A stretch of DNA of 64,000 bases from positions 1 through 64,000 of the forward strand of contig QPGO01000115.1 in NCBI GenBank assembly GCA_008632985.1, given 5' to 3'. This document shows positions 7,700 to 42,617 of the stretch, in pieces. Numbering within the stretch: the stretch's first letter is position 1; every line of letters starts with the position of its first letter. A program made the translations under genes and the position numbers. This DNA comes from Psammoneis japonica (taxonomy: Eukaryota). The notes under the pieces are model-generated. The model made no database searches. It was given only the letters and a program-made list of their open reading frames with translations, and was not told the origin of the DNA.

Positions 7700-8380
7700 C
7701 AATCGTTTCACCATCGATCAGAAACCTCTAATGATCTTCACAATCTCCCAGGCCCTTCCGTTCCCTAAAAGCCATAAACACGTCAGAAAGTGGCTTTGTA
7801 GTCTGCAACATGAACCTAGTAATCTCAAAGGTTTCACTGTCTCTGATGGCGATCGGAATTATTTTATTAATAAGCTCTCATCCAGTCACTTCTTAGTCAT
7901 CAAAGAAGGACACAAAGACGCACATTCGAGTGGGGACATTTCTGATGGCAGCCAGAGCTGCAGTGGTCATCCAGCAACAAGTGTGACATTGACCGGACCT
8001 TTCATCTCAACTCAAAAGGCCTTGACGCTTGCATGCACAAAAGTGCGCTGGCACAAAATCAACCAAGCCATGGAATGGTTGAAAAAAACAGTCCTCTCTG
8101 TCACAACATTTCAGGTGCACAAGAAGGCTCCAAGAAGGTTCTCAGGTTCCTGCTGCAGATGACTGTGCAAGACAACACTGTTGAAGATTGTCATCACAAA
8201 ACATTGTTTTTAAAGCTGCGTGACAGAAATCTGGGCATGTGTCATGTGATTGCCCTCATGTCATCAGGCTTGAAAACAAACGGGTTGAGTTGTTTTGTGC
8301 ATGACAAAAAGACAGCACAAGTTCCAAACAGATCATTCTCAATGGAAAACAGTTTTGTGCATTGCTTGCTTGTTGAGATT
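7700..8380 (+). mobile_element. Degenerate Helitron-like fragment
   Basis: VRWHKINQAMEWLKK(N)SPLCHNI resembles the Helitron-associated VRxxKVxxALxWLKxxNPLYxDI motif, with a frameshift and Y->C. Confidence 0.4.
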
Positions 8381-8387
8381 GGCAACA

Positions 8388-8572
8388 TGCAAGATCTGGC
8401 TTGAGATGACTTGATAAAACAGGTTGTGAGAGAACCAAGAAGAGACCCGATCAGCACAATCACTGATCAGAACTGACTTCTGACGGCCTCTTGAATGTCC
8501 AACATGTCAGTTGATGCACATGTGTCAGAGAGGGCACACTTGGTCATGGAGCACATGTGCCTGTCTCATTCA
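8388..8572 (-). repeat. 3' LTR
   Basis: Near-identical to 12408-12594. Confidence 0.9.
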
Positions 8573-11500
8573 CTCTTCCCCTCCATGGCGCAAGAATCAT
8601 GCACACCATTGGAACCACTTGACTCAAATTTAAACTCCAAATGCACATGGAGAAGGGAACCCAGACATTGGGAAGAAACCCTCAACTCCGATGTGGCACC
8701 ATGCGATGAATGTCAATTCGCTCAATGACGTGTGGTGCTCACAGCACCGAAACTGTCCTGTTGGCGTGGACTTGCACAATTCAAAATGGACTGTGAGCTC
8801 AAGCTTCTAGCTTCGCTGGATCGACGGACTTGATCAACACATCTTGTCCCACCAAATGATCACAAGAATGACACTTCGCATTCTGTCGTCACAGGTTTTC
8901 ATTGATGAGCACTTGACAGTTGGCTTGAGTGGCAGCAAGATCAGAGAGAACAGGTGGATCCAAAATCATGTCTCGTTGGAATGCCAAAGCTCCACTTGAA
9001 ATGCCCATGGACCTTGAATGAGAGCATCGCAACGCAAAAGAGGCTGCAGCAAGGGCATCATCCACAATCTGCTTGGCCTGTTGAATGTTCAAAGGTGGGT
9101 CAGCAGCAACCACAGTTTGCAAAATGTCAGCTGCCAGTTGGTGCATTCGTTCACAAATGGAGTTGGCTGCAGGATTCCGTGAGGTTGTCGGAGCATCTTT
9201 GACACTGGCCTGGTTCAACGGCATCTGAAATTCCCAACCAATGAATTCACCGCCATCATCATGGACACATCAATTTGGTCTGGGATGATGAGCTGACCAA
9301 AGGTTGCGGAACTTGTTGGTGATGTGTTGAGAAGTTTTGTTGTCAGTGCGCACGAGTTCAGTCAGGCCAGCGACAGCATCAATGCAAGCAACGGCACTGA
9401 ATTTGATCTCTTGATCTTGAGTTGGCATTTTCCACGGCCCAATGAGATCAACTGCTGCTTCCGACCATGGAGCCAATGGTGCTTGGCATTCAGGCAATTC
9501 TCCACATCCCGGACCAAGTTGTTTGAAACGTTGACAGGTGTTGCATGCAAACTCATTACAACACCGATGCAATGCAGGGTGATGCATGTGAGTGCAAATG
9601 CTCTCGCACAAATGAACAACTCCACAATGGCCCAACACACGATGATGACACCACACGAGCATGTCAGGCAACAATGCAGTTGGAGTGCAAATTTTCCATG
9701 CTCCAGGTGGATCACTCAAATGCAGATGACAACATGTGAGAGGACACTGGTTCACAATCTTGACCACAAATTGCTGCGGGTTCTGTTGTCTCTGCTGACT
9801 CAGTTGCTGGTCCTCAAACTGGAGCTGTTGCACCCACAATGTCTTGGTGGGGCTTGGCATCTTGTCCAATGTCAGACAATTCAAAAAGCATTCTAACAAT
9901 TCAGGCTCATCAAGCAGAGAAGAAAAGGCATGAGACTCATCAGAGGAATTGACAGGAGCATGGCAACACTTGAACCTGCAAGCACCCAACTCCAAATCTT
10001 CTCTTCCTTGGCCTTGCTCAATTCACTGCCATCCAACTTTTTGAAATGAACAATTTTTCCTTTGCGTTTGCTGTCTGGCCCAAAAGGCTCTTCCCCTCCG
10101 AAGGTGGATCCATGCACGGGAGTCAAGAAAAACAATCGGCGAGCATGTTGTCCTTGCCTTCTGCATGTTCAAAAGTGGGCACGAAATCTTCAAGGAACAG
10201 ACGCCAATGAAGGATGCGCTGTGTGTTCAAAGTGCAAAAGGTGAGATTTTCATGGTCAGTGTGAACATTGATGTCAGCACCGAGCAACATTCACAACCGT
10301 CAACTCTTCTGGTCTTGTCGAATTCGGGTGGCACAATGTCACTCAGAGCCACCCAATGACCCGACTCTGGAAAGGACCTGCCACGGTTTGAAAGGCTTGT
10401 ACTCCATGCTCATCAATGGATGGCACAGCTCCATGAGGCAAAACTTGAGAAGAGATCACAGTGTGAGAGCCACCAGAATCAAACAATGCATGCATCACAT
10501 GATTCGACTCATGACGCTGGATCGATTTGGCAACTGGTGGGGTTGATGGAACCAATGCGGTGCGCGAGACTTGCGAACCCATTTTGGGGAGAGGAGTGTT
10601 GTGTTCAAATGCATCTTGATCGAATGCGTCCCCCTCTTCATTCATGTAATTTTCTGCAGCATCTTCAAATTCAATGGGCGACAATTCGTTGGGATTTTCA
10701 AAACAATCAAAAGCAAAACTTTCAGGTAAATTTTCAGGCATGATGCAATCATCTTCAACAAATGCTTCACATGTGGGCAATTGGGAGCATTCAGCTCCGG
10801 AGCACTCAGCTCCTTCTTCTCAGAACTGCCAAGGAAACTGCCCACCTGGCTGAAACCTCACCACACCTCCATGACGTGGAGGGCCTCGTCCGATCACATC
10901 GAAATGGTGCATGTCACCACGAGGAGCTTCTCAAGCCTGGTTGTCATTCATGTCATCTGCTTGAGCAGCACAACCATCAGCATGACCTTGGCCACCACGA
11001 TTGTTGTCATCATTGCAATGATGTTGGCCACCACCACCTTGGTTGCCATTGTCACTCTGACTCCCATTGTTGTTGTTGTTGTTGTTGCAATTGTTGCAAT
11101 GGGCACTGCGACCTCCTTGGTTTTGGTTGCCACGACCACCAAAGTGTCCACCACCACCATGGCCAGGACCACGGCCTCCTTGGAAGCAACCTCCGCCTCA
11201 ACCTCCACCACCACGACCTCCATCTTGACTGCCACGGTTTTGAGGTCCACGACAGTCAGGGTTGTTTGGATCATCACAGCACTGGCCCCATGCATGTCTT
11301 CCATGATGCCATGGGACCGGACACAGATCACCAGCCTTGGGTTGACCCTTGTTGTCCTTCTTGTCATGGCTGCCCTTCTTGTTGCTGGAGTTCCCTCCAT
11401 TGCCATTGTTGGACTTGCATTTCTTGTTTTCTTGACCATTGGCAAACACCTTCTCGTCACTCATGTGAGCTTGAATGTCCACCTTGGAGTCTGCAACAAG

Positions 11501-12407
11501 ATTCTTGCCCGCACGAATGTGGGGCTGCTGCCAGGTCAAAGGAAAGGTGCAGAAGATGACATTTTTCTGCTCCTGCTCTGTGAGTTCAGGGATGTTTCCA
11601 GGCAAGCAGTCAGCACAAAGAAACAAGGTTTCCATGCAATCAATGCAAGTTTCAGATTCCATGGAGCAAGGTTTCTTGCAAGCAGGCAAGCACATCTTCA
11701 TTGCATCACGAGCTGTCGGCTTCACATGACGCAGACAGCAGGCCGAGATGGCTTGATTAAACCGAGCTGCCGTCCTTTGATTCTGTTGGATGCCCGCTGT
11801 GACATTCTGCCATTTTGCCTCTGCAGTGCCTTGCAGGCAAGCCTCAAAAGCATCAAAAAGTTCCGCTCCGGCATCACAATCCAACTGTCTTGCTGCCTTC
11901 TGAAAATGGTCCTCCACATGCGACAGTGATTCAATTCCATGTTCTCCTGCAAAAATGGGACACATTTTTGAAAGTTTAGTTCCATCATCAAAGGTTTGAG
12001 CAAGCTTCACTTCCTGCAATTCAGAGTCCACAAATTTGGTTTTGTGCTCAATGCATGCTTTCTCCAAGGCTTCTTGACACATGCCGATGAACAATTTCAG
12101 CGATCAAGGAATCAATGATCCACACAATGGATGAAAAAACACGTTCCCAATTGATCCACACAATGAGAACAATCAATGACCAAACAAAAACAAATTCAAG
12201 TGTGGCAACATGAGCTTCACGTTTAAACAAATGCTGCTCTGAATCACCAATTTCACGAGCACAGTTGCGCTGAGGTTCCGATTGATTTCTGATGAAATTT
12301 TCTGCACGAGCATGCAAGTGAGCTTTCTCTCTTTTCACCAGCACTCTGCACATTGTCATGAAATGGATGACACAACAAGCAAGCCATGACAATGACTGCA
12401 ACCACAG

Positions 12408-12594
12408 TGCAAGATCTGGCTTGAGATGACTTGATAAAACAGGTTGTGAGAGAACCCAGAAGAGACCCGATCAGCACAATTGCTGATCAGAAATGACTTC
12501 CAATGGCCTCTTAAATGTCCAACATGTCAGTCAATGCACATGTGTCAGAGAGGGCACACTTGGTCATGGAGCACATGTGCCTGTCTCATTTGCA
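12408..12594 (-). repeat. 5' LTR, followed on the minus strand by PBS-like TGGTTGCAGTC
   Basis: Near-identical to 8388-8572. Confidence 0.9.
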
Positions 12595-14906
12595 ACAAGA
12601 TGACAAAACAAAGGTCATGTGATTGTTTAACGTCAATGACCTCCAAACAGAAAAATGGCTAATCGACTGGCCAGGAGTCGATCATTTTCCAACCAAAAAA
12701 TGACCCAGGCAATTCAAAAATTGGAGTCTTTTGTGTCAATGTGCAAAGTGATTTGCATGAAGTCCCGAAGCCTTCGAAAGTCACTGCACTCTGTTTCACA
12801 CACAAAGACCGCTTGCAAATTTGGTCTTTTTGAAAGTGGTCAACCCCAAACCCGCCCCAACTTTGTCTCACCCGTCTGTCTCCGGTCAGGGTCAGGGCAG
12901 GGGGGAGACACAGATGGATTTGTCAACTCATGTCCGACACCCCAGATGATGCTGACAAAAGAGAAAAAGAGGCCAACCCCAAAGCCAAGAAAGAGAACAC
13001 ACCACACCCAAGAATCATGAGATGGCTCCTGAAGAGGGTGGAGCTGTTGGGGAGGATGACAGTGCCTCTGGGGAAAGAGAGCAGTCGGAGGACAAGGGAG
13101 ACTCTGAGGGAGTCACTGTCCTGTCACAGGTCAATCCCGATTTGTCACCCAATGTCTTCAACTCGGATGCAGAACAACTCATTTGTGAGGTGTGCGGTGA
13201 GACATGCAATCCAAATGATGGCACTCATTTGAATGGTGGCACATTGGATGACCAAATTTGGCAAGAGTGTTGGCGCCGGCTGACACCTCACCCAACAGAA
13301 TGACGCGACGTTCCGAATGGCTCCGCAGGGAAGCACTTCATTGCAACATTGGCTGAGTTGCTCCGTGGAGTCAAGACATGGAAATGGAACTCAGAGAGAT
13401 TTGCAGTGTTCCAGATTGTCATTTTGCAGCGGGGGCACAATGCAAAAGGCGCAAAGGACATTGGGGCTCCACTCGCACAGTGCATGGATGATTGGGACAC
13501 AGACAAACACAAAATGCTGGTTGAATCTGCCAAGCGGCTGCTTGCAAGCAATCTCAAATCCACTCTGAAGGACGAGACACACCCGAGCAGCACACCAAAA
13601 CATTTGACAGAATGGCGCCACGAGGAAACCCAAGAGATGCAGTCAGGTGCATCACAGAGAGGGAAAAGGGCGGAGCCCTGTCCCTGGATGACATCGATGA
13701 CAAGACCAATGACGCAGCATTGGAGGTCCTGCAAAAGAAACATCCAAAGTCAAGGGTTCCAGAATGAGACCAATTTCCTGTGCACAGCAAACTGCCTGAG
13801 CTCCAGGATGTCACAAACGCCAACAGTGTTGTTGATGCAGTGTCAGAGAATGGCATCTCCATCATGAAAAAACCAGTTGATTGCTTTGAGAAGCCCATCA
13901 GGCTCTCATGGCAAAGAGGCTCACAGCGCCAGACAAAAATCCAGGCATCCATCCGGTTGGTGTGGGAGAGGTGTGGCAGTGAGCCACATGGCCAAAGCCG
14001 CTCTCCTTGTCTTGGGAGCAGAAGCCAAAGATGCTTGTGGCACTGACCAGCTTTGCGCGAGTTTGGAAGCCTGCACCAAAGGCGCCACTCACACAGCGTG
14101 TCTGCTCTGGGAACAACATGAGTTTGAGGATGACCCGCGGGTTTCTTTTTGTTGATGCATGCAATGGCTTCAACAAAAAGAACAGGGTGATCATGCCAGC
14201 TGTTTGTGGTGACCTTGGAATGCTCACGCTCCTCCACAGCAAGGATGGTGTCATGCAGGGCAACCCACTGGGCATGGCGACATGCAAGTTGGGCCTTCTC
14301 CCACAAATCCACAAGATGAGCAAGCATTTTCCAGATGCACTCACTCCTTGGTGTGGGAAATTTCAAGTTCTGCGCGATTGTTTTCCAGCTCCAGCCCACA
14401 AGCCAAAGGACCCAAGCGCAGCTGTTGCCCTGCCAACAACTCCAAAAACATTCTTGTTGTTCAACAGCACAGCCTGGAGAATGCCAAGAACTGCTTTGGG
14501 GACCTCAGCTTCACCATCAAAAGTGGCCGCCACTGCCCAGGAAGCTTCGTGGGCAAGAGAGAGGGCTCTCAACAATTTGATGGTGGACAAGACCAAGAAG
14601 TGGACCTGGGTTGTCCAGGGACTTGCCAAGACAGCAATTTGCCACCCACAGACAGCCTGTGCTGGCCTGCAGAAGTCTCCACAGCACAAGTGGCAGTGTG
14701 TTCAATGTGCAGCCAAGGACTGCAGCGACTCTTTTGCCAACGTGGAAGAAGCAATTAAATGCCAACCCCTGTTGGCACTTCCAGGCAAGACCCTGAAGGA
14801 TGATGACCCAAGGCTGCCAGCCCTTGCCTCACTGCCAATCAAATTTGCAGGACCATCTGTCCAACATCTGCTGGAGTCTGCAAACCAGGACTTTGAAGTG
14901 AGGGCT

Positions 14907-15302
14907 GACGCGTTCCAGCCCTAGGTGGGAGCTCGTAGTGCTGACGTGTGACAACAATAATTTTTATCATCCGTCGTATGTTTCGTACGTAGATTTCTAC
15001 GTGTGACATTTAAAAAAAATTGTCCAGACTCGCTGTTTTGCGAAGCCCCAGACGTTTTATATAACAAATTTATAGAAACAATAATGCGCCAGTTACATTC
15101 TTCAATGTCTGAAGAATGTAACTGGCTAAGTAAAAAATGATGTACTTCAATCATGTGCGAGTTTGTGCGTTCGCAAAATTGCCTCATTTTCTGTTGGCGA
15201 TCATTGACATTTTAATTACCGTATAATTTTACTACGGAGCTCGCACGTAGAAGTCTACGGGCCCAATGTCACACGGATTCCCACCTACGTCTGGAACGCG
15301 TC
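14907..15302. mobile_element. 396-bp MITE, intact (TA-containing) copy
   Basis: TIRs GACGCGTTCCAG..TAGGTGGGA / TCCCACCTA..CTGGAACGCGTC; 4-bp TSD GGCT (14903-14906, 15303-15306). Confidence 0.9.
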
Positions 15303-15685
15303 GGCTCTCATGTGCTCTCAGGTGATTGACTCACTCCGCGGTCACTTGAAATTTGCCACAGTGGTTCACAAGGACATGATTCATGAAGTGAGACCCGCAG
15401 CAGCCAAAAGGAAAGCCACAAAGCACAAGGAGACCCCAAAATCAATCCTCTGTGCACTCCCTGACATTGAAGCCACGCAGTGTGGTGCAGCACCAAGACT
15501 GGTGCTTGGTTGTCAGTGTGCCCTTTGGCACTGAATGAGAGCTCCCTGACTTGCCCAAGGCTTGCAATGGACGCAACTGTGAGTTCTTCATTCAACATGC
15601 TCTTCAGTGCAAGAAGGGTGGATTGGCCATCAAGATCCATGACAAGACAGGACTTTTTTGCACTTTGGCTCTCAAGCCAATTGCA

Positions 15686-16081
15686 GATGCGCTCCAGACG
15701 CAGGTGGGAATCCGCGCGACATTGGGCCCGTGGACTTCTACGTGCGAGCTCCGCAGCAAAATTGTGCGGCAATTAAAGTGTCAATGATCGCCAACAGAAA
15801 ATGAGGCAATTTTGCAAACGCACAAACTCGCACATGATTGAAGTGCATCATTTTTTACTTGGCCAGTTGCGTTCTTCAGACATTGAAGAATGCAACTGGC
15901 GCATTGTTGTTTCTACAAATTTGTCATGTGAAACGTCTGGGGCTTCGCAAAACAGCGAGTCTGGACAATTTTTTTTAAATGTCACACGCAGAAATCTGCA
16001 CACGAAACATGCGACGGATGACAAAAATTGTTGTTGTCACACGTCAGTGCTGCGAGCTCCCACCTGGGGCTGGAACGCATC
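15686..16081. mobile_element. 396-bp MITE, TA-converted copy in the opposite orientation
   Basis: Colinear with the reverse complement of 14907-15302; 4-bp TSD TGCA (15682-15685, 16082-16085). Confidence 0.9.
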
Positions 16082-17150
16082 TGCAGTGCACAATGAACCA
16101 CTCATCAACCCCACTTGTCACACCTCCAGAGAAGCCCAAGCACCAACAACAGTCAGCCTGACAGCCCATCAAGCCCCGTCACAACCGCCAACAAGCCCAG
16201 GGATGGCAGTCAAGGAGATCCATCAGCTCAAGGAGCTTTTGAACGCGGCACAGACCTGACCATGGGGGCATCAGAGCAGCCAACACTGACACAGCATCTC
16301 GCCCATCCAAGACCCCAGAACAAGTCCTGCAGGGCCACAAAAAGGAGAAAAAGCACAAGCGCCCAAGGCCCTGCCTTGAGCTGTGCCACCATTTTTCATC
16401 CACAGTGGTGTCATGCAATGGTTTGATTGGCAAAAAAACCAAAGCGGTCCTGCATCTTTGGCCAGAAAGATTTCAAGCAAGTGGCAGAGGCTGTGTTCCA
16501 AAGTTTGTGGCTTTGTGGGTGCAAGACTTGGTGTTGCAATTGCAAGGGCTGCTCATCTTGTGCCTTGGAGGCTCAGATGACCCACCTCAGATTGTGCTCA
16601 CAACAATGCCAGGCCAGGTGGAAGAGGACGAAATGTGAGATGAGTGTCCCGGCAAAAGTTGCGGCTCAAATTCTGTGTGCAGATTTTGCCAAAAATCACA
16701 CACAAAATTCCCTGTTTTCACGTCCACAATTGCACAAAAAAAACTTTTCCAAAAAAAACACACACACACACATTGAAGGTCATTGTTTCAATTGTCTGCA
16801 GCACAAACCCTGTTTTCCCATTTTGTGTTGACCTCTTTTCTTCATCCACTTGCATGCCCACAAGGACATTTGCAGCGGCAGAGCAGTCTGTCTGTGTGAA
16901 GGTTTCCCCACTGCACTCACACTTGGTGTTTTCATCTGCCCCTGCCACCTCCAGCACATGTCCAGCCAACCCCACTCCACCTGGATTGGGCTGGAGGTGG
17001 CAGGTGGCAATGCAGGGGCAGAAAAACACACAAAACATTTGCAGAAACCTTTGCAACAGATGGGCTGCCACCGAGGCTCTCCTTCTTGCTTGTGCCACCC
17101 ACAAGTGCCGACACCCACCAGGGTTCGGTTTTCAGTTTTCACACGATCTG

Positions 17151-17151
<1 letters not shown>

Positions 17152-17181
<30 letters not shown>

Positions 17182-17419
17182 NNNNNNNNNNNNNNNNNNN
17201 NNNNNNNNNNNNNNNNNNNNNNNNNNNNNNNNNNNNNNNNNNNNNNNNNNNNNNNNNNNNNNNNNNNNNNNNNNNNNNNNNNNNNNNNNNNNNNNNNNNN
17301 NNNNNNNNNNNNNNNNNNNNNNNNNNNNNNNNNNNNNNNNNNNNNNNNNNNNNNNNNNNNNNNNNNNNNNNNNNNNNNNNNNNNNNNNNNNNNNNTGTGT
17401 GTGTGTGTGTGTGTGTGTG

Positions 17420-17422
<3 letters not shown>
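17152..17422. repeat. (TG)n microsatellite spanning an assembly gap (N 17182-17395)
   Basis: Directly visible. Confidence 0.95.
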
Positions 17423-24489
<7,067 letters not shown>

Positions 24490-24812
24490 ATGTCCGAGCA
24501 CGTATCGTGCGTGTCTTATCTGGCTATTCGCCACCAACGCTGCTGGGGGGTGCGTCCCACTATATAGTTAGGAGGCGGTAGTTGGTGGTGTCAGCGCTTA
24601 TCCAGCAAATTTCTCGCTCAATGATCTTTCCGCGATCAATAAGTCATTTCTATGACTTATCCCTTTTGTAATAAAATAAGTCTTTGAAATGACTTACTGT
24701 AGTGTCAATTAAAGGTGTCTGGGTTCGGTTTCTGATCTCGAGCAACAACAATAACAACTGCTGCTAGCTAAGGGCCATACCTTATCAACCATCTATTGGA
24801 GCCAGTGGGCAC
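24490..24812 (+). repeat. LTR-like segment plus PBS-like motif, homologous to 17420-17710 but TA-containing
   Basis: gatcaataagtcatttctatgacttatcccttttgtaat versus gatcaacaagtcatttctgtgacttgtcccttttgcaat; tcaaccatctattggagcc versus tcaaccatccattggcgcc. Confidence 0.7.
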
Positions 24813-24955
24813 GATCAATCGAAAAAAATTGCGTCCAAAGTCCAAACGTCCAAACTCCAAACATTACTGTTCATCAAACGAACGTTCAAAAGCGTTAAGG
24901 TGTGCCATTCTTTTTCCCACGTGTTTGTTCTGCCTCTTTTAAAAACAACAACATA

Positions 24956-26881: not shown

Positions 26882-29800
26882 AGCTTTCCTTATAAACTCT
26901 AACTTCAGTTTCCTCATCGACCTTTCCCTCCGTTGCCACATCCAGCTTGTCACCAACTGACCGGCCTTCCATGACTACGAACATACCCGGTGATTCACCA
27001 TCGAGCTAGCATGGAACAAAACATTGTAAAATGTGATGTTGCAACAAGAAATGAGAAGAGCCCCAATTTGACACAGGAATGAAGCACACAAATGACAACA
27101 GTTTTCAATCCCTTTGAATTCATCTGGAAATGCTGGCTCATGGTGTTGTTGGGTGCTGGTGTCATGCTGCTGTTTGCACATCAACATGAAGGACAGCAGA
27201 TCAATTTTGCTGACAGCACCATTGTTTTGTCAACAGTTGATGTTTTGCCACACACAATGTGAAGATGTTTTGAGAACAAGTGCTCTTCACGACAGAAATT
27301 TTTTCATGCAGATTCTAGACTTGCTTTGGGATGTTTGTTTGCAACATTTTTGAACAGATGCACGCAGACATTGAGGGGGTCGTCATCCCCACATTCATCC
27401 TGGAATTGCCATGGCATGGATTTGAACAAGGTCATTTGCAGTCTTTGCTTTTGAGTGCAAAAATTGTTCATCATGACCCATTCACACACGAAAACAAGAG
27501 ATCAGGCACCGCGATCAAAGCACGATGATGATGGCAATCTTGACATGAGTCCAAAATGCAAAATGGTGCATCCTCCTTAAACATTTGGTGTGTGTGTGAC
27601 CTTTGATGCACAACAAACACAAAACACATGAGAGTTGGAAGAAGACAGACCACCTCCTTCACAGACTTGTGGCTTGATGTTTTGCCAAGGTAAGGCATGG
27701 TGAAATTCAGGGAAAATTGTACAAATCACAAGCTGCTCAGCCAAACTCAAGCTAAAAAAGGGGCAAATGACCCCCCTTGAGACAAACACAAGAAATTTTA
27801 AGGATGTGTGAAAGCATGAGAGACTCCATCCAACAAATTTGCATTCCCTGCAGAGCTTGCAGATTGTGCGCCAGCAAAAATTCACCACCTCTCAACTCAC
27901 TCAGTGGTGTTTCTGCATGTCTTCTGCTTGCACTTCACATGTGCACACATGCCTGCACAGTCTGGCACCCGTGCACTGCATGCGCGAGATTGTTCAAGAA
28001 CGAGTGCAAGCATGCATGCCATTCGTTAAATTTTTTAAGCACAAACACCTGTTTCTCATTTCATGCAGGCCTCTTTTCTTCCTTCCCAGTGGGAAGAAGT
28101 CTCGGAAAGTGGAGGAGCATGGAAAAAGATGGTGGTCAAATTCTGTTGACACAGGGGCACCCACCAAAAAAGCTTTGGGTCATTGCATTGTGGTGGGGGC
28201 ACAACATGGCAAAAACACACAGATGTTTGCTCTGCAACAAAGTGGGCATTGTGCCGCCTTCAGGTCTCCCCATTTAGAGAGGGGGCGAACATTCATGTGA
28301 CCCAGATTTGCACCATGGGCTCATCAGGAGGAACCGCCATTGTCTGGTGCTTGCTTTGAAAAAAAGCAAATGTGGGTGCATTGGTGTGTGAACAAAATTT
28401 GCAATCTCCTCCCCATCTGGCACACACATGTGCACATTGTGCAAGACTCATCTGTTGCCAAACACATCAATTTGAAATGCCTGGTGCCACTCAGTTGCTG
28501 CAGCACCTCCAGCTGCAACCCACAATGATTGTGGTTGCAACTCCACCATTGGCTTTTGCTGCCAAGTTGTGGCAGTGGTTGCAACTCTGCTGTTGGCTTT
28601 TGCTGCCAAGTTGTGCTGACAGTGCAGCAATGGTTTGGCACTTTGTGTTGCTGCATTGCATCGCAGCTGGCAGCACGCTGACAAAGGCAGTCATCTCACT
28701 GGCTCTGAAGACAAATTTTGGTGGAGGGCACAAATGAACAGGTGGGGAGCAATTGTGGATGACAATGCAAACATGGAAGAACATGTTTTCAACAATGCCA
28801 AAAATCAGAGAAAAGGATGGGAATGGATGTGATGGGAGCAGACATGACAGGAATGAATCTGCGTGGGGACAACAACCACTGGAGCCCATGGTGCATGCTC
28901 AGCTGATCATTTGCAAGCTAGAGACATTCACTGCAAGGCTCAAGACAGAGAATGCTGAAAGCAAAGAAGCCATGCACTTGACCCTCTGGAGCGGGAGACT
29001 GGTGCATGCACCAATGAGCATGCACTTGTGCCTCTTGCAGTTTGTGTTGCTGACAACATGATTGCCAATGTGAGAAATCCAGTTGCAAAGACACCTCTCA
29101 AGCTGCACTGGAACCATCAAGAAAGGTCAGACAGCATTGAAGCATCTGTTGTTGAAAACTCCCACAAAAACAAAGGAGAATGACTGTGGCTGCAGGACAT
29201 TCAAGGACTTGTTCAACTGGCTGGTTCCTTGTTGATGATGGGCTTTTCTCTCACAGATGCAGATTGTGGTTCAGCACAGTTGCACAACATGAGGACCATT
29301 CACCTTGCATGCAATCAACATGCTTGAGAAGCTTGGCAAAGTCACAGCAATGATGTGCCAGGAAGAGTGCATCCAACAGAAACTTCTAGACTGGAGAAAC
29401 AAGAGTGCAAAAACAAGAGAAGCTGATTGCAATGACAGAAGGATTGAATGACTGGCAGAATCTTTGGTTGCCATGGCTCAAGAACAAGGGAAAAGAGCCC
29501 CTGAGCTGCGCGCACTGATTGCAAGAATTTCCCTGTAAAGTTCCTGGATTCCTTTCAAGAGACAACTGGAGCCCCAAAGGGGAGCTGGCTGAAGCATGGC
29601 ACAGATGCATTGTTGTGTAGACAAAGGGATTTCAGTTGATTGATGACCCCAGAGCTTGAGGTCAAGGAGCTGAACAAAGAGCACCAGCCCTGCTGTGTTG
29701 CACTTGAGACAATTGAAGATGCTGTGGGTTTCACAGTCAGTGACTGCAACATGTGGTCATTGTGGGGCACAAAGATGATCATGCCACTTGAGGGGGGGGG

Positions 29801-30849
29801 GGAACAGCATCCATCCCCAACATGACTTGTTGACATGGCTCCAAGGAGATGATGCAGCAATGTTGCAGTGAAGAAAAAGAAAAGGAAAAGGAAGAGTTCA
29901 AGCAAAGCAGATGTTGAAGGTCCCTTCAAGTTGAGTCACCCAGAGCACAAAGGCTCAATTTCTTAACCTTGGAGTCAAGTGGATGGACAGATGCAAAATG
30001 CCAGAACTGCTCTGCTCCATGGGCCATGATGCCCCTGTCACATGTGCTCTCTTTGGAGAGAGGCAAATGGCCATCTTGACAACCATGGCTGGGAGTGGCC
30101 AAAGACCCACCATCTGGCCAAGAAGTGAGAAGCAGATGCCAAACTGGGCAGCAGCAAATGCTGCAATTGCCATGGAGAGCATTCAGGGGCAGTTGCAAGA
30201 TGCTTGGCTGGACAGCATTCATGGAAGTTGTGCGGGCTTTGACGTCTGGCAGCAAAATGTTGATCTCTGCTGTGGATCTCATGCAAAAGGCACTCTTGTC
30301 TGTGACATCATTGGTTGTCTGCTGCAACACATTGCAGGTGACAATGTTGCTTTGCTGGAAACAAAAGACAAAGTTGTGGCCATGTCACTTGTGCTTTCAA
30401 ACTTTCTGAAAAAGCAGTGCAAGAACCATGTCCACCAGAATGATGGAGGGAAATCTTGAGTCCTGCAGCAATGCTGTCTTTGTCAATGAGCAAACAATCA
30501 GCTGGTCAAATGACTCATTTCTAAGAAGTTTTGCTCAAGTGTGACCAATGATGGCTGCCCCTCCTGATGGGCACATGAGGTGAATCTGGGTTGTGCAATT
30601 GTTCCTCTCTCCAAATGGGACCCAAAAAGGTGTCACAACATCCACTTTGTGGGAAAACATCCATGTTTTTGTCATTTGCATCTCTCTGGATGGAAAGTTG
30701 CATGGTGCCCCCATGCATCCTGTGTCATGCATTTGCCCTTTTTGTCATTCAAATTTTGACTGTGTGACAAAAACTTAAAAAAAATCAGTTTCAGCACAGA
30801 TGAAAAAAAGCATCTGAATGCAATGAAGCAGTGCTGCTGAGATGCCACA

Positions 30850-31780
30850 AGCATGTTGCAGCATTTTATGATCATGAGCCTGATGATGAACTCTGTGTTG
30901 CTCCCAGAATGCCTGGACAGCTTCAGTCAAGCTGTTTCAACAGCTTGAGATGGTTTGATCTGCTGCAGACACAAGCACCGTCCATCATCACTTGGCCCAA
31001 ATCTTTGTGATGGCAGAGGATGGACAATTTGGCATGCAAAATTGAGCATGACATCACAAGAGTCCTGCACCATGCCACCATGGCTCTGTGACTTTAATTT
31101 TCCATCATCTTTTCTAGATTGGGTGAAAAAGGTGTTTTTGCAGCACAAAAAACTCCATTGTCAACCTGAACCAGAGAAAAGCATCCACATGGTCTGTTGT
31201 CACAGGATGCGCAGACGAGCTTTTTGTTGATTTTTGGTGCACGACTTGGCCTTGAATCCAGTTGAAGCCAACACAAAAATTGTTCTCCTGCACACAGTTT
31301 GCAGCACAAATTCCACAGGGAAAAACCCGGGCGTGGACACTTTTTTACACTCCTGCCTGGCCTGTCTGGACAGAAAAGGGCTCAAGGCTGGATTGACCAG
31401 ATGCAGTCTGTTGTTGCACAAACTTGCATTTTTTGGAGAAAAACCCAGATTTGTCATGCTGGATGCACGCGCTTGCCAACAAAATGTTTTCAGGAGTGAC
31501 AGGCCAAACTGCCGGTGCGTCATTTGATCTCCCAAAGATGTTGAAAATGCTCCTTGTCTTGAGTTGTCTGAAACCTGCAATGCCTTGCCATTGTGAGAAT
31601 GTAGGAGGATTCCCAGCAGAAGGGCAAACGGTCTCAAAGAAGTCGTCAAATTGTGCGTGAAATTGCGGCGATGCAAGTCCAGTCTGCAAATTCAAAACCA
31701 AGGTGACTGAACCTGCGTGTCTTGTTGATGGTCCCAAATTGATCCCTAAACTCGATGGTTGTGACCATGCATGATGTTTG
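30850..31780 (-). mobile_element. Copia (diatom CoDi-like) pol fragment
   Basis: GINLGPSTRHAGSVTLVLNLQTGLASPQFHAQFDDFFETV (post-integrase motif) and DGKLKSQSHGG (degenerate KARLxxHGG). Confidence 0.75.
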
Positions 31781-32494
31781 GCTTGACAACCACCACAGAT
31801 GTGTCTGCAGCCAGTCAAGTGCCAATTGTTGGCATTTCCTGGAATGCTGTGGCTTGTCTTTCCTGAGCAGTGCGATTTTGGCAAAAAATGGTGGTTGTTC
31901 AAGTGCAACAACTGCACTGAATCCAACAATTGGCATTTGAAGGTTGAAATGTGCAGTTCACACAAAGGTCTGATGACCCTGATGGGGGCTGGACACACTC
32001 ACAAGTGTTTGGGGGTGCTCAGAGGCATCGCAAAACAACACAAGTGAAGCACAAGAAAATTGCAAAATGACAAGCTGGTTGAAGAAAAAATGCCTCATCT
32101 GGTTGATCCATGCATTCACTCCAGCAATCTTGGATGCCTGACAACATCAATGGAGAAATGCCACATGTGTCAGAATTGCTCTTGAAGTGGGAACAGACAT
32201 GCCTTTTTTGGCTGTTCGAGACATGTCGCAAAATCTGACACTGCAGTGCACCGCCAAAGCACCATCTGTGCCTGCACATGCCACCCCCCCCCCTCCAAGT
32301 CTTCCCATGGAATTTGCCAGTGGCCAAGAGAGCTTGAGCACAATTCAAGGTCATCACCCATGCCCATGCAACCAATTTAGAAAAACACCAGAAAAGAACA
32401 TGATGGGCACAGACAAAGGAGAGGTCAGGCACCATGGCAAGGGAAGCATCACAGGAGGAGACAAGTTTGCATTGGGAGAGATTAAAAAAATTGG

Positions 32495-32950
32495 CTGCAC
32501 CTTGCAAAACTGGTGCACCTGCAATTTGTTGCATCACAGTTCAGGCAAGAGATCTGCAGCTGCCAGGTCACACCTTGCAAAGCTGGTGCACCTGCAACAC
32601 ATTGCATCACAGTTGAGGCACAAGACCAGTGGCCAAGGGTCAACCATTGGAAAGAAATTTCCGCAGCCATGTTGTGTCCATTTTAGCAGGTCACAAAAGA
32701 ACAACCGTTGGAAGCCACTGTTGCTCCCACTGACCCCAGCAGCGGACAAACCGGGAAGTGGCAAACCAGGAAGCAGCCAGGCAACAGGAATTGCCAGTGC
32801 GCCAGCGACATTGCAGGTTGCACCTTGCAAAGCTTGCACACCTGCAATCTGTTGCATCACAGTTGAGGAACAAGATCAGCAGCCAAGGAGCAACCATTGG
32901 AAATGACATCTGCACCCATGTTGTGTCCATTTTGGCAGGTTGCAAATTTG
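32495..32950. repeat. Imperfect direct repeats: three copies of about 60 bp (caccttgcaaa.ct.gtgcacctgcaa...ttgcatcacagtt), two with a 60-bp extension
   Basis: Copies near 32498, 32571 and 32821. Confidence 0.75.
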
Positions 32951-34483
32951 CAACTGTTGCAAAGACATGCACATCACACCAGCAGTGGTTGATGATTGGT
33001 TTGGCTGTTGGCCAAATCAAAAAAGAGCTGCATGACAAGTGGCTGCTTGGTGTCCTGCCCATTGGCTTCAAACCAGTGCACGGCTCTTCACAGGTTTGGG
33101 GGGTGCAAATCATGCATTTCACAATGAATGCAGTCTGGCAGCTCAACACTCAACACGTTGATGATGCCCAAGGTGTCCATGCAAAAGAGAAATGGAATTG
33201 CAGCAGAGAGAGAGAAACAGATCTGCTTGTTGGTCAGACCCATTTCTTCTCCAACCTCTCCAATCAAAACCAGATGATCACAAATGGCAGGCATCATGCA
33301 GGGAGCTTCACCACAACCACGACAATGCACCCAGGGCATGATGCTGCCCTTTGTTGCCTTCACTGCAGTGTTGGCATCTTTGTCACTGTCCACAACTGTG
33401 GTGACACCATTGTTGGCAGGGACAAATGACACACTCGGAATGGACGCTTTGGAGCCGCTGTCAAATGCATCCCAGAATGATGCCACAACAGCAGCTTCAG
33501 ACATCAAAAAACAAGAAAAGCAGCCTGCAATTGGCGCAGCAATGACAGAGAAAATGGCAGAACTGCACTCAGCAGCAATCACAAAAGGATGCTTGCCCAC
33601 ACACGTCATCGTGCATGTTCTTCTGCTCATGTTCACTGTCTGTGTCAACAGTGCTCAATGCTTGATGCAAAAGCAGAAGAGCAGTGCAAACAATGCTTTT
33701 GACAACAAATGACAAGATGTCACACTGCTCTTCCAACGCTGGTTTTTCCCATGAAAATGACAACAAGACAATCTTCATTTTAAGAATTGTGGCAAATTTG
33801 CGGCCTGCATGTGGGTCACAAAAATTTGAGGACAAGAATTTTGCGGCCCAGATGTGGGCCACAAAATCATGCATCAAGCATCTGATGCAATTGTCATTGA
33901 GGATGGATCTGCATGCTGTGGTCTGTCTTTTGGGAGCTCACAATTTTCACAAAAACAACCCGGATGCATCGCAGCAAATGCGTGCACACATTCGCAAAAA
34001 AATGTTCAGCAATGGGCTGAACTTTGTCCGTTCGCCAAACACCACAGAATGCTTGAACAACAGGCATGACCACATGCGCAACTTTTGCCTCATCAACTGC
34101 AGACATCATGTCCGCAGCCAGTCAAGCGCCACTTCTTGTCGGCATTTCCTGGAAAGTTGCGGCTTGTCTCCCACAAGAAGCCCGATTTTGGCAACAATTG
34201 GCGGGTTTTTCGACCTGACAACAGGGCACAGGTCAACAAGTGGCATTTGAAGCACCAATTGTGCTGCTCTTAAAGCCGTCTAACGTGGTCTAACAGCCCT
34301 TGTGAGGGTTTGACGAACGCACAAGTGGTGTCGTGCGTGCGTGCTCGCTCTACATCTAAAATTCCACCGTCTTTCCGTGTCTCCTTCCCAGTAGCTAGAG
34401 TAGAGTAGAGTAGTACCGGTAGAGTAGAGAGGGCCTCTTGGTACGGTAGTAGCAAGAGTACACACAAGAACCTCCATAGCACC

Positions 34484-35239
34484 ATGACATTCGCAGGCCA
34501 CGCAATTCCCGCCGCCTTCTTTCTTGGCTTCGGAGTCTACCTCCTGTGTCTTACTCTCCACCGCGCAAGACACCAGAGTGGTTCGATCGCTCGTTTTATA
34601 CCCGAAAGAGACGTCAAAATACTACGCAACAATGGCGTTTTGATTATTGTAGCGACTCTCTTGGGCATGACATATGAAGCCGGTGCTGGTATTCGCATAA
34701 ATCAACCACTCCGACATATTCTTCACTTGACGCTATACTTTGCGTTTGCTGTTGTGGCGGTGGTGTTACTGCTGGAGTCACGTAGACGACTGCCTCCAGA
34801 CTCGCATCGTATTGCTCTTGTCTTGGCCTTTGCGGTGGAGTATATTCTTTGGACCGAACACGCATCCATGAAGAGCGGTGTTGAAGAGAGAACGCACTTG
34901 ATTATGGGACAGATTTGTGCCGTTGCGGCCTTGACCATGATCTTTTCGATATGTGTGCCGTCCAATGTTATTGCCTTTGTGGCGGGGTGGGCACTCATGG
35001 TTGTGCAGGCTGCCTGGCTCTTTACTTTGGGCATTTGCGACATGGGAAATTGCTTTCGAATGGATAGGGTTGGATCATATTTTTGCCTAGAAGTGCTGAT
35101 TATCACCATGATTCTTGTTGTAGTGACGGCATGTGTCTACAAGGGCGAAGACGAAACACAGAACCATGCTATTGGGAAAGCAACCTCCAAGTCGACGAGA
35201 GAGGAAGAGTATCAAAGTTTGGCACTTTCTGAAGATTGA
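34484..35239 (+). CDS. TMEM45/DUF716-like multi-pass membrane protein
   Basis: MTFAGHAIPAAFFLGFG start, several TM helices, conserved His residues. Confidence 0.75.
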   Translation: MTFAGHAIPAAFFLGFGVYLLCLTLHRARHQSGSIARFIPERDVKILRNNGVLIIVATLLGMTYEAGAGIRINQPLRHILHLTLYFAFAVVAVVLLLESRRRLPPDSHRIALVLAFAVEYILWTEHASMKSGVEERTHLIMGQICAVAALTMIFSICVPSNVIAFVAGWALMVVQAAWLFTLGICDMGNCFRMDRVGSYFCLEVLIITMILVVVTACVYKGEDETQNHAIGKATSKSTREEEYQSLALSED

Positions 35240-35560
35240 CTAAATCAAGACAAAAACAAACAGCTGGCATTCAACACGACAAACTGATATCAGTAGATGC
35301 AGGCGCAAAAAAAAAGAGTTGAATGTTCCGGTGTACGAAATTAAGGCCGACAGGGTACGATGCGGTCCTGTTGTGCTACAATCGATTGGTCTAGCAGGCA
35401 TACTGCTGTACTATGTGCAGCGGCCAAAAAATGTGAGACAGGATCAAATCGAACAACTGTGACAGAAATGGACTCGATCTCTTGGTTTGACGGTAGGTTT
35501 TTAATAGAAATGATGCGACAACAGGTCTTCGGATAATTCTGTTTATTTACAACTTTATTT

Positions 35561-36800
35561 CTAGTGTTTGTAGCTTGGCGCCGAACTACAGTATCGGCTG
35601 CTTTCTTCGGCGCTCTCCTGACCTTCGAGATCCACATCTTGTGACGTGTTAGAAAGGTTTCCACTTTGTTTTTCATAATCTGAGACTGCTGCAGCGTCCA
35701 ATTCATGTAAGCAAGCAACAGCGTCGTGTGATCTCAAAAATCTCCAAGGGATTGCGCTACTTGTAGTCCACTCGATCGAAACCGTTGCATAACCGTGACG
35801 CTTGGATTGCAAAAGCAGAGTTGAATTGATTGCTCCTTGTAGAATTCCAGCATATCCATGAGCACATGCAAGCCGCTTGTGTCGACATGTGGCACAGGAC
35901 TCAAGTCAAGAATCACAAACTTGACACTGACACCCTTGCCCTCCTCCGCCAGCAACTTTTCGGACGCCGCTTCGCATTTTTTCAGCTTTTCCCGAACATT
36001 TTGTGTGTCCAAAAAGTGGATCAAAGCATCAATGTGAACCATGACAATCCCGTTGTAATGTTCTGCTTCTGGATGCTGTTTGACGTTGCGACACACAGCA
36101 GCCCCTGGCAACCGTCCCAACACTGCCGTGTGTGGACAAGCCGACTCGCAAATCACCAACAAGAGCAACAAGCAACACAATGACCGCAACAGCCAACCCA
36201 ATCTCGACGCCCAAAAACATGGCACCAAGACAGGCAACCAGCCAAATGAAAAAGTCAAATTTGTGAACTTTCCACAAGTGCATGGCCCCCTCACAATCCA
36301 AGAGTCCAATGACTCCGAAAATGACAATGGCGGCCAAGACGCAGAGCGGCGGGTGCTCAAAGATGGGAGTCAAAAACAACAAGACAAGTCCCACAAGACA
36401 TGCCATCACAATGCCACTGAAACCACTCTGGGTGTTGCTTTCGTTGTTGACAGCACTCTGGCTCTGAAGCTCCCGGTCACACTGGCTGGGTGTGCTTGAA
36501 ACATGGCGCCAAAGAAGTTTGCCACACGACTGAGTCCAATCAATTCAAGTGAACTGTCCAACTCATGTTTGTGTTTGGCCACCAACTGTTTTGCCATTGC
36601 AATGCTTTCCACATGCCCAAGAGAATTGCAATGGTGACCACAACCATCATGAGTGATCCAAAATCATTGATTGGCATCCAAAGTTGGCAGCAAAGTTGGG
36701 CAGTCCCAAGGGAATGTCACCAACAATGAGAATGCCCTTGTCCTCAACATCACTGGCCCAAGCAACATTCATTGATAGAACCGTGACTGTTGATGGCCCG
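35561..36800 (-). pseudogene. SulP/SLC26 sulfate transporter (STAS) pseudogene, 5'-truncated, frameshifted and TA-converted
   Basis: ELDSSLELIGL..ANFFG, VTGSF, VLAAIVI.GVIGLLD, LGVEIGLA, LGRLPG, VILDLSPVPHVDTSGL. Confidence 0.85.
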
Positions 36801-38440
36801 ACATGAGGCAAATGCAGGCCTGTGGTTCTGATGCTGGTGGTGGCAGCATGCACTGAGCTCTTCCTGCACCGCTTCCCAGTTTCCAGGGGTTCACCCAGAT
36901 CTTGAAGAGTCAGCCCAGCTCACAGCATGAGTCACCCTCCTTCTTGCTGCCACAGCAAAGCTTTGTCGCACCATCTGGAGAGCACAGGGAAGCTGGCAGG
37001 ACTGCTCAAACCCACACATCACACAACCAAGAGTGCCAGCAGGAAGGGGTTGCCACTGTCACAAAATCCCAGGCCAAAGCTGGAGATGGAAGGAGCTCCT
37101 GTTGGCACCACATGTTGCTGCAGCTGAAAAATGGTGTGTGAGCCTGCTCTCACCACTGATGCTGCAAAGATCCCAAGCCAAAGCTGGAGATGGCAGGAAC
37201 TCCGGCTGGCACCCCATGCTGCAGCAGCTGAAAAATGGTGTGTGAGCCTGCTCAAGCTTGTTTGCCAGACTGTGTGGGGCTGCTCCCTTTGAATGATGAG
37301 CACAAAAATGCTCTTAAATGGGCCATTCATTTCTTTCATGTCCAATGTCACCTCTGCCCATCGCCAGCATGCGTGCATTTGCATGAGATGCTTGCCCTCT
37401 TTTTGCCTCAGCCAGCAGCACACCTGCATGAAGCCACAGGGCTGAGTTGGCTCTGTCAACTGCTTGATGGAGATGCAGAGAAATGGTTGTTGCATGGTGA
37501 CAGCAAGCTTGAGAGGCTTTCCCCCATTGTTGACATGGCAGGAGAGCACCCACTTTTGCCAGCCAATGCACGATGTGTGAAACAAAAGTGCATGCTCCCA
37601 AACAACAGCCCATCATTGGAGATGCTTTCCACAGTGCACTGAGCTTGACTTGTGATGTGTCAACAGCAGCAGCAAAAAAAGAGTGGGGAACTCCAGGGCA
37701 TGTTGCCAGCAGCAGCAACAGACCACAGGCCCAGACAAGCATGAAAGTTCATGATCGTGCACCCGGCCAAGATGGTGGCACATTGGGCACACCATGCAAT
37801 TGTGGGTGGGGAGCATGACTCCATTTGCAAGTCAAGTGGTGTGCTCCCAAAGTGTGTGTGATCTGTGAGCAGTTGGGAGAAGCCTCCCTCAGCAAAGAGG
37901 GCAGCATTTTGGAGGTTGGAGGCACAGCCACCCTGGGCAACAAAGAGCCAACAAAATTCTGGCCCTGTTTGTGTGGTTGAAAGCAAAAAAGGTTTTGCCA
38001 AGGTTGGGTCTAAGAGCCATTGAGCATGCACCAGCTGTGACCACTCTCCTCTGCATGCATGGTGCTGCAGCAACACCTCTCGCTCTTTTCTCAAAAGCTT
38101 GCTCACCAGCACATGGTCCGAAGCAAGCAGCCACAAAACTGCAAAAGTTCTTCTTCTTCTCCCTGGCCCTTCCCAAAGAATGCAGCGTTTGAGTCAATGT
38201 GTGGTGCAGCTTGAGCAGCCAAGCCACACTGCAGGAGGAGAGCACTGGGGGCAGAGAGGGGAGCCGGCAGCTGGTGCCCTGGCTTGGCTCAAAGCAACTT
38301 TGGGGTGCTCAGCATGGGTGGCACACACCACTCCATGTCACATGTTCGCCCTGCAGCTGCAATGTGCACCCACCTTTCGTGCCTGCAACCACCCCAGATG
38401 ACAAAGAAGAAGCCAACAAATCTCTGGCCCTGCTCAGGGA
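35860..38440. other. TpA-depleted block 3
   Basis: Near absence of TA. Confidence 0.9.
37068..37253. repeat. Two direct repeats of about 82 bp with about 104-bp period
   Basis: gccaaagctggagatgg...gcagctgaaaaatggtgtgtgagcctgctc occurs twice. Confidence 0.85.
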
Positions 38441-38693
38441 CATAAATGTCGTCGAATCCCCTCCTTTTTTCCCTTTTCCTTTAGTCCGGCCAGAATGTGA
38501 AAAGCTCCAAAATTCCGTCTTTCCGTGTCTCCTTCCCCGTTCGCGGTTTTCAGTTTTCACTTCTCTCGCACACGATCCATCGCAAAAAACTGCGTCCAAC
38601 ATTTATTGTTCATCAACCGAACGTTTCCAAAAGCGTTGTTGGCGGAGGTGTGTCCTTCTTTTGCCCACATGTTTCTTCTGCCTTTTGCACATA

Positions 38694-42371: not shown

Positions 42372-42617
42372 GTATCATCGGCCATCAACATGGCCTTTCT
42401 TAGACACCACAGCTGGTACGAGCAAAAGACCGGCTGCCGACATGCTGTTTTCACTTGACGCGTTCATTGTTATATTAAGATCACCTTATTGCTAGGCGTA
42501 CTTGAATGCAAGTACCACACCACATTTGAAAGGATCCATCGCAGTCGCTAGATCAATACGCATGACTTTCTAAAGAATTATTTACATGTCGTTTCTAAAT
42601 TTTGTTTATCTAAGGCT

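Follow-up and report, generated by a model that had tools for sequence, protein, structure and literature searches.

Near-complete loss of TpA from bounded, presumably silent regions of a diatom contig points to a host A-to-G process acting on chromosomal DNA

A 64,000-nucleotide stretch of the genome of the diatom Psammoneis japonica (contig QPGO01000115.1, positions 1 to 64,000; hereafter the window) contains sharply bounded regions of transposon remains, together with one dead host gene, from which the dinucleotide TpA (TA) has been almost completely erased. In these regions the A of TA has been changed to G on one or the other DNA strand, leaving TG or CA, and the change has struck DNA that is not of retroelement origin as well as retroelements. 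We consider it probable, at roughly three chances in four, that a host process of the kind reported for the chlorarachniophyte Bigelowiella natans converts TpA on the chromosomal DNA of this diatom. Such a process would rewrite A to G in place on the chromosome, would be confined to silent regions with sharp boundaries, and would run there close to saturation at a rate much above that of CpG decay in the same regions. It would prefer T-A-pyrimidine and largely spare TTAA, duplication alone would not switch it on, and its action may be episodic. The sequence pattern further suggests an adenine deaminase as the enzyme, which would convert adenine in DNA to hypoxanthine; an ADAT/TadA-type deaminase is a possible candidate, and chromatin state or small RNA might direct it to its targets.

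Indeed, the multi-kilobase blocks poor in TA and rich in TG and CA that a first-pass annotation of the window had described beside genes of normal composition are readily recovered. When the observed/expected ratio (o/e) of TA is computed per kilobase along the 64 kb, it lies between 0.00 and 0.10 at 8 to 14.8, 15.4 to 20.4, 21 to 24.4, 27 to 34.2, 35.8 to 38.6, and 51.6 to 53.2 kb, as against 0.43 to 0.82 in gene regions. The region from 60.4 to 63.4 kb, which had also been called almost devoid of TA, is depleted but only partly so (0.17–0.43). Pooled, the blocks carry 70 TA in 26,300 bases (2.7 per 1000 dinucleotides) and the normal flanking DNA carries 1240 in 31,104 bases (39.9 per 1000), such that block TA is approximately 15-fold below that of the neighboring genes and approximately 93% of it is gone. 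The frequencies of TG and CA are 107.4 and 116.5 per 1000 dinucleotides in the blocks versus 73.8 and 71.2 in normal DNA, whereas that of CG is 18.3 versus 56.1. Expressed as o/e from the pooled frequencies, the values for blocks versus normal DNA are 0.04 versus 0.59 for TA, 0.31 versus 0.97 for CG, 1.84 versus 1.17 for TG, and 1.75 versus 1.16 for CA. Between normal DNA and blocks, TA and CG together fall by 75.0 and TG and CA together rise by 79.0 per 1000 dinucleotides. CpG decay occurs in the same regions as the loss of TA and accounts for roughly half of the surplus of TG and CA. The G+C content is 0.486 in the blocks and 0.481 in normal DNA, and the blocks are therefore invisible in a G+C plot.

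The edges of the blocks are sharp. On the left, dense TA ends at position 7894, and the next TA dinucleotides are found only at 8211 and 8415. The further edges fall between 27027 and 27316, at 34271, between 35853 and 36056, at approximately 38443 to 38604, between 51568 and 51711, and at 53307, with a resolution of 120 to 320 bases. The nearest open reading frames (ORFs) lie approximately 140 to 600 bases from the block ends. Block 1a (7895–14903, with 17 TA in 8001–14800) and block 1b (15306–24502, including an assembly gap at 17182–17395 and a (GT)256 array at 23976–24488) flank a short island of normal TA described below. Block 2 (27028–34270, with 24 TA in 27001–34200) includes multi-copy segments, block 3 spans 35854 to 38603 (8 TA in 35801–38600), and block 4 spans 51569 to 53306 (5 TA in 51601–53200, with (TG)56 at 52193–52304). 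Block 5 (60335–63462) is the partly depleted region and contains a 181-base tandem repeat at 61516–61995. Between blocks 2 and 3 sits a 1.6-kb island of normal TA (34271–35853; 77 TA in 34201–35800) formed by a plus-strand gene with a DUF716 match (34409–35236, E 4.4e-9) and its short flanks.

A record of the change is preserved in two copies of a MITE-like (miniature inverted-repeat transposable element-like) sequence of approximately 400 bases, whose paired copies and terminal inverted repeats of approximately 15 bases agree with the label MITE given earlier; no target-site duplications were seen at the copies on inspection by eye. Copy A (14904–15305, plus strand) carries 29 TA, all located between 14922 and 15286. 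No TA is present in 14757–14921 or in 15287–15738, and thus the island of normal TA coincides exactly with copy A. Copy B (15683–16084, minus strand) carries only 5 TA. The two copies differ in 38 of 403 aligned columns. At 24 of the 29 TA of copy A, copy B has CA (14 sites) or TG (10 sites), the reverse case does not occur, and at most three further A:T to G:C changes are present outside TpA. The excess of TA to TG/CA change that the first-pass annotation had anticipated for aligned copies is therefore found. With 14 CA and 10 TG arising within 400 bases, both strands must have been struck. Moreover, TA drops from 29 to 5 while CG drops only from 27 to 25, which indicates that TA is lost at a far higher rate than CpG decays. 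The fact that copy A is unmutated inside a block shows that block location alone is insufficient for conversion; either this copy inserted very recently, or the process works in bursts.

These features also bear on a passive origin, wherein damage such as ultraviolet (UV) photoproducts at TpA would go unrepaired in heterochromatin. Diatoms live in light, and silent DNA does not benefit from transcription-coupled repair. We nonetheless regard this explanation as improbable, since TA differs between 2.7 and 39.9 per 1000 dinucleotides across edges of 120 to 320 bases, approximately 93% of TA is lost although the CpG dinucleotides of MITE-like copy B are nearly intact, and an unmutated insert persists within a block. 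In addition, atypical UV lesions are reported to give A>T and AC>TT rather than A>G (PMC10160025).

Since a comparison of two copies has no direction of its own, polarity was taken from outgroups. The integrase region of a Ty3/Gypsy element, represented by a minus-strand ORF (9273–10022), contains no Tyr in 250 residues when aligned to six relatives that have 3 to 13 in the same stretch. All four conserved Tyr columns read Cys (two) or His (two). Arg has given way to His or Cys in 7 of 10 conserved columns, as CpG decay predicts. The replacement of Tyr by Cys or His had been illustrated previously by the motif GPGCGELP in this region. This example stands insofar as four of the six relatives carry Tyr (G[AP]GYGELP), but one has Phe (GAGFGELP) and one, P0122, likewise has Cys. 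P0122 is a Gypsy pol relative from another public assembly in which Tyr makes up 1.5% of residues versus 3.0 to 3.8% in the five others, and it might represent partial conversion of a copy in another genome location. In an unrelated protein, the remnant of a SulP transporter gene described below, 13 Tyr that are well aligned in the relative P0127 (counted by hand from the alignment) are read as Cys (four), His (five), or Phe (two) or are kept (two), and one of the two that are kept lies in the TA-normal 3′ end. At the DNA level, positions 31655 and 31673 of a multi-copy repeat are TG in the window, whereas most other genomic copies in sequencing run X1 have TA (by depth, 1172.7 of 1306.2 at 31655 and 919.1 of 919.1 at 31673). 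Finally, a search of metagenomic sequences, which favors intact copies, yielded 301 confirmed Gypsy relatives, of which 80 were kept, and all 80 loci have a TA o/e of 0.43 to 0.96. As had been argued, the TA-poor state is thus not a bias of the elements themselves. The presence of Tyr in the outgroups and the normal TA of relatives together establish that TA is ancestral and that TG and CA are derived.

The opposite polarity would require that C-to-T change at CpA/TpG, of the type known from fungal repeat-induced point mutation (RIP), created the TA dinucleotides and that the TA-poor state is ancestral or simply the composition of these sequences. The comparison of MITE-like copies A and B, lacking inherent direction, would permit this. 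We give the idea almost no credence, because relatives have Tyr where the window has Cys or His in two unrelated proteins, TA is ordinary in all 80 of the related loci kept, an ancestor resembling copy B would have needed 5 TA in 402 bases, and the host-type SulP sequence is likewise TA-free.

The change was also made on DNA rather than on an RNA intermediate. TG and CA are about equally numerous in every block, with mild local skews at most, which together with the 14 CA and 10 TG of copy B bears out the earlier proposal that A is changed to G at TpA on both strands. The Ty3/Gypsy element offers a further view of the timing, given that the two long terminal repeats (LTRs) of one element are identical at integration. 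Its LTRs (8388–8570 and 12408–12590) are 94.5% identical over 183 bases. Among the 10 mismatched positions, six form three adjacent TG-versus-CA pairs, as is expected if a TA originally shared by both LTRs was converted on one strand in the first LTR and on the other strand in the second; only 0.12 such pairs would be expected via CpG decay. Outside of TA-derived changes approximately 3 of 183 sites differ, yet nearly all TA have been lost. Positions in TG-versus-CA pairs account for 44 of 204 mismatches among seven repeat pairs from the blocks (some overlapping) versus 2 of 320 among two paralogue pairs from gene regions. As evidence for change after insertion, we take these doubles to be only moderate. 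When they are combined with the use of both strands, the MITE-like and pseudogene targets, and a block edge that falls inside the pseudogene, the conclusion follows that chromosomal DNA was altered after the elements had inserted.

An alternative in which an ADAR-like enzyme performs A-to-I editing on double-stranded transposon RNA, with the edits fixed via reverse transcription and reintegration, would likewise yield G in place of A, and two Gypsy-type retroelements are among the targets. The 5′ U/T neighbor of the changed A fits the ADAR preference as given in the preprint on B. natans (10.64898/2026.01.13.699255). This route is highly unlikely here, however, because both strands are changed within single elements and TG matches CA in the blocks. 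Moreover, the targets include a MITE-like element and a host pseudogene, neither of which passes through RNA, the edge of a block falls inside that pseudogene, and the TG-versus-CA doubles of the LTRs must post-date integration.

The pseudogene in question (35686–36802, minus strand) is a truncated member of the SulP/STAS sulfate permease family that spans the edge of block 3. It matches the families STAS (E 7e-20) and Sulfate_transp (E 2.9e-21) and aligns to residues 321 to 694 of P0127 (745 residues), its reading frame being broken by two frame changes and by in-frame stops. Five TA are present in its last 170 bases and a single one (36056) in the remaining 950, which places the block edge within the pseudogene. 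This is host-type DNA and not a transposon. The view that the blocks are transposon DNA is therefore correct for the two Gypsy-type elements and the MITE-like copies but does not cover this host-derived sequence. The STAS/cNMP gene at 48.6 to 51.7 kb was considered as a recent source of the pseudogene and rejected, as tblastn gave no match.

If repeats as such were the target, then duplicates should be converted. Two copies of an M14 carboxypeptidase gene (Peptidase_M14), located at 24860–27005 (plus strand) beside block 2 and at 38598–40753 beside block 3, terminate exactly at block edges (27005 and 38598). They are 91.2% identical over 2174 bases and are unmutated, keeping 87 and 86 TA. Conversely, tracts at single-copy depth of sequence words in run X1 are converted, although heavily mutated copies would fall below the 90% similarity threshold anyway. 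Thus, duplication alone is not the trigger. The term "RIP-like" used in the first-pass annotation is misleading insofar as it implies induction by repeats, given the untouched 2.1-kb pair and the conversion of a pseudogene at single-copy depth. The distribution would instead be consistent with guidance by silent chromatin or small RNA. As a separate observation, three M14 paralogues are present in the window (5361–7397, 24899–26878, and 38193–41141), and the 91%-identical pair, with normal TA in both members, brackets an 11.6-kb stretch that includes blocks 2 and 3.

The 24 events in the MITE-like pair reveal a preference at the position that follows the mutated A: 13 events have C there, 6 have T, 3 have G, and 2 have A. 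At the same sites, the opposite-strand A is followed by A (10 cases), G (6), T (5), or C (3). A 3′ pyrimidine therefore accompanies 19 of 24 mutated A but only 8 of 24 of their opposite-strand counterparts (Fisher p 0.003). The TA dinucleotides that survive in the blocks follow the same preference. TTAA makes up 24 of these 70 versus 47 of 1240 in normal DNA, a 9-fold enrichment, and YTAR, in which both strands present only T-A-purine, makes up 43 of 70 versus 192 of 1240 (p 6e-17). No ATAC/GTAT is found among the 70 survivors, compared with 14.6% in normal DNA, and at both 31655 and 31673 a T-A-C has become T-G-C. The bacterial substrate of TadA presents its adenosine in the anticodon-loop context U33-A34-C35, early TadA-derived base editors favored Y-A-C, and ADAR favors a 3′ G, which is found in just 3 of the 24 events. 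The T-A-C preference observed here (13 of 24 events) resembles the TadA context, and on such general preferences the motif would fit a TadA/ADAT-type enzyme better than ADAR.

The same motif can be read from the other strand, where T-A-Y appears as R-T-A. A thymine modification in R-T-A, for example 5-hydroxymethyluracil made by a JBP/TET-type enzyme, might lead through mispairing or misrepair to T-to-C change with an identical outcome. In dinoflagellates, 5-hydroxymethyluracil is enriched at TpA. We know of no thymine modification system that drives near-complete T-to-C conversion, and we consider this explanation unlikely, if less so than the other alternatives weighed here. For B. natans, adenine deamination is also the mechanism preferred by the authors in the main text of the preprint (10.64898/2026.01.13.699255).

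Of the three sequencing runs listed, two contain sequence of the window, and all three are derived from one sample. Contigs assembled from run X1 reproduce the blocks, and the depth of 31-mer words is approximately 60-fold over genes and blocks alike. An X1 contig of 3891 bases (27650–31540) differs from the window by three letters and two gaps, and another of 3049 bases (34226–37274) differs by one. Raw reads from this same sample thus carry the converted sequence, a matter on which the first-pass annotation had made its proposal depend. Only 1 of 19 checked differences between X1 contigs and the window (29619) falls at TA, and these differences are therefore uninformative on ongoing conversion. 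A base-calling artefact, wherein a modified base of heterochromatin is misread at TA while the DNA is truly TA, might be entertained because the runs with sequence of the window all come from one sample with library type unrecorded. It is very improbable, however, in light of the agreement of the 31-mer contigs with the blocks at approximately 60-fold depth and the normal TA read in MITE-like copy A inside a block. The blocks also carry independent marks of decay, namely the shifted frames and in-frame stops of the pseudogene, the internal deletion of the Gypsy element, and the replacement of Arg by His or Cys through CpG decay. Run X3 gave no match on the window. Long contigs from run X2 are confined to gene regions (34475–35532 and 38608–44458), and in the blocks this run has thin depth with short, loose-ended pieces at a few multi-copy segments; X2, labelled "DNA?", may be a transcript library.

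The signature had been proposed to represent an undescribed system, but the same TpA to TpG/CpA change has been observed de novo in mutation-accumulation lines of B. natans. The main text of that preprint reports that two viral inserts accounted for 231 of the 302 single-nucleotide mutations in nuclear DNA, that A>G and T>C made up 230 of these 231, and that, according to the authors, the GC-biased ones were all on TpA (10.64898/2026.01.13.699255). The rate was approximately 6e-7 per site per generation and was seen in some lines only. The same source describes 124 genomic clusters that are TpA-poor and rich in CpA and TpG, as well as an enrichment of TpA-poor coding sequences for reverse-transcriptase and DDE domains, and in it Mettrop et al. 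propose a candidate ADAT2-like DNA adenine deaminase (10.64898/2026.01.13.699255).

As in B. natans, where A>G and T>C changes are confined to TpA and are regional while the neighboring genome is normal, the changes in the window consist almost entirely of A>G or T>C, lie at TpA on both strands, and occupy bounded tracts beside normal genes. The B. natans process acts on giant-virus/virophage DNA and is apparently not constitutive; here, an unmutated MITE-like copy is found within a block, which would fit episodic action and a very recent insertion alike. The two cases differ in several respects. The host there is a rhizarian and here a stramenopile, and the targets there are viral inserts, whereas here they are transposon remains and a host-derived pseudogene. 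Depletion in the viral insert is given as a Rho of 0.45, compared with a TA o/e of 0.04 and thus near-complete erasure here. In the diatom, CpG decay overlies the loss of TA, T-A-pyrimidine is preferred and TTAA largely spared, and the signature is read from sequence rather than seen to arise de novo. The main text of the preprint makes no use of the words diatom, CpG, trinucleotide, flanking, or TTAA (10.64898/2026.01.13.699255). Relative to that main text, the occurrence in another major lineage, the near saturation, and the transposon and host-derived gene targets are new, and the motif and post-insertion evidence go beyond it. Among the full-text literature searched, which does not extend to subscription journals, this preprint is the only description of the signature, and no report from a diatom was found.

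Several better-known systems share part of this behavior. RIP in Neurospora and other fungi also inactivates transposons in place by dense, directional, dinucleotide-specific transitions on both strands. RIP changes C to T at CpA and so creates TpA (PMC2621366, PMC7296669), and its polarity is thus opposite to that in the window, where TpA is erased. RIP is furthermore triggered by duplication, whereas here the 91% duplicates have escaped conversion and tracts at single-copy depth have not. Hyper-editing by ADAR resembles the present case in that deaminated adenine appears as G and a 5′ U is favored. It differs in acting on RNA, namely double-stranded RNA derived from repeats, in being strand-specific once fixed, and in lacking reach to a MITE-like element, a pseudogene, or a chromosomal edge. 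Vertebrate APOBEC3 proteins likewise hypermutate retroelements by deamination (PMC4866542), but they deaminate cytosine in single-stranded cDNA before integration, in a strand-specific manner and on retroelements only. Decay of 5-methylcytosine at CpG is present in the blocks as well (CG o/e 0.31 versus 0.97). It has no power to remove TA, however, and is slower here, as copy B retains 25 of 27 CG but 5 of 29 TA. Transposons of diatoms are CpG-methylated.

A number of observations weigh against a host process of the B. natans kind, or limit how far it can be pressed. None of the 80 environmental Gypsy relatives carries the signature, and MITE-like copy A sits unmutated within a saturated block. 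TG-versus-CA doubles can also descend from an ancestral CG; the 181-base tandem repeat has 9 such doubles where 3.5 would be so expected. The motif is drawn from 24 events and 70 survivors, and by sequence T-A-Y deamination looks the same as a change aimed at the T of R-T-A on the other strand. Lastly, the read support comes from one sample that may be the assembly's own and is therefore not independent.

A broader possibility can be put forward tentatively, although we would sooner bet against it than for it. Diatoms and chlorarachniophytes might share a chromatin-guided DNA adenine-deaminase defence with a T-A-pyrimidine preference that works in episodic bursts on whatever DNA is silenced, including host genes, and serves as a main route of transposon inactivation in these algae. 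If this were true, then the bursts might be tied to a stage of the life cycle, such as a rare sexual phase, and the system would be nature's equivalent of the adenine base editors used in the laboratory. The near-saturated footprint in a diatom suggests that such a system may be widespread among major marine primary producers and that its reach extends beyond viral inserts to transposons and a host-derived gene. The T-A-pyrimidine/TTAA-sparing motif offers a criterion for any candidate enzyme, and the question may now move into a group of organisms with genetic tools. A natural DNA adenine deaminase, if real, would be of interest to base editing.

The transposon content of the blocks escapes family models. 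A Pfam scan of the 137 ORFs that overlap the blocks matched no transposon family, and two of the ORFs hit the sulfate-permease families of the pseudogene. Since Pfam is blind to these remains, their identification needed homology searches. The Ty3/Gypsy element (8388–12590, minus strand), recognized from its LTR pair and by tblastn and tblastx, has a gag-like region at approximately 11261–12070 and pol pieces at 10666–10287, 10290–10087, and 9995–8688. Residues 9 to 133, 617 to 684, and 712 to 1141 of the relative P0121 map onto it by tblastn, and most of the reverse-transcriptase (RT) region is deleted. Relatives of this pol carry rve, RVT_1, and RNase H families, and tblastx matches metagenomic relatives, in agreement with the Gypsy label assigned earlier. 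A second, divergent Gypsy-like pol remnant, found by tblastn and tblastx (19277–23953, plus strand), shows 24 to 30% identity to P0121 through P0125 at 19280–20251, 23034–23669, and 23837–23953 by tblastn. The plus-strand ORF containing HPQTACAG (13983–14921), which had been offered as a CRE example of lost Tyr, has no Pfam match. In an Atlas feature search it scores as RT-like (top score 0.94; 26 of 30 matches in the RVT_1 set), which we treat as a lead only; the earlier labels CRE, Copia, and Helitron-like would be tentative.

Block 2 (27 to 34.2 kb) gave no family match and only two short tblastx matches. Two of its segments are multi-copy, with X1 word depths of 771 (27369–28035) and 1819 (31371–32037) versus approximately 60 elsewhere, or 12- to 30-fold the single-copy depth. 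X1 contigs join 31777 to 34136, 31837 to 34146, and 31895 to 34209, and these junctions omit approximately 2.3 kb flanked by direct repeats of 140 bases. That piece is therefore missing from other copies or from the other allele, in a solo-LTR-like arrangement. In block 4, weak ZIP-transporter matches at 52.1 to 52.7 kb (E 0.002–0.005) were judged spurious, as follow-up gave only weak, unannotated matches, most of them without a BLASTP alignment.

DNA that is free of TA has no TAA or TAG stops, and long false ORFs consequently arise on both strands. There are 21 ORFs of at least 200 residues that start within 7.9 to 24.5 kb. Some overlap on opposite strands, for example 10730–11929 (plus) and 11198–12103 (minus), and would likely be called as genes of unknown function. 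False ORFs, together with family models that miss the true remains, constitute a practical problem for annotation.

The flanking genes are ordinary and mostly have long open frames. The top named relatives of a flanking ClpB homologue are diatom proteins, for example from Thalassiosira pseudonana (74%) and Seminavis robusta (72%), in agreement with the diatom origin of the window. Normal DNA of the window also contains two paralogous segments that are 76% identical (46006–46826 and 47395–48169). Finally, pure (GT)n arrays of 256.5 copies (23976–24488) and 56 copies (52193–52304) lie inside TA-free blocks, as does a third array that is interrupted by the N run at 17182–17395; DNA enriched in TG and CA may seed such microsatellites.

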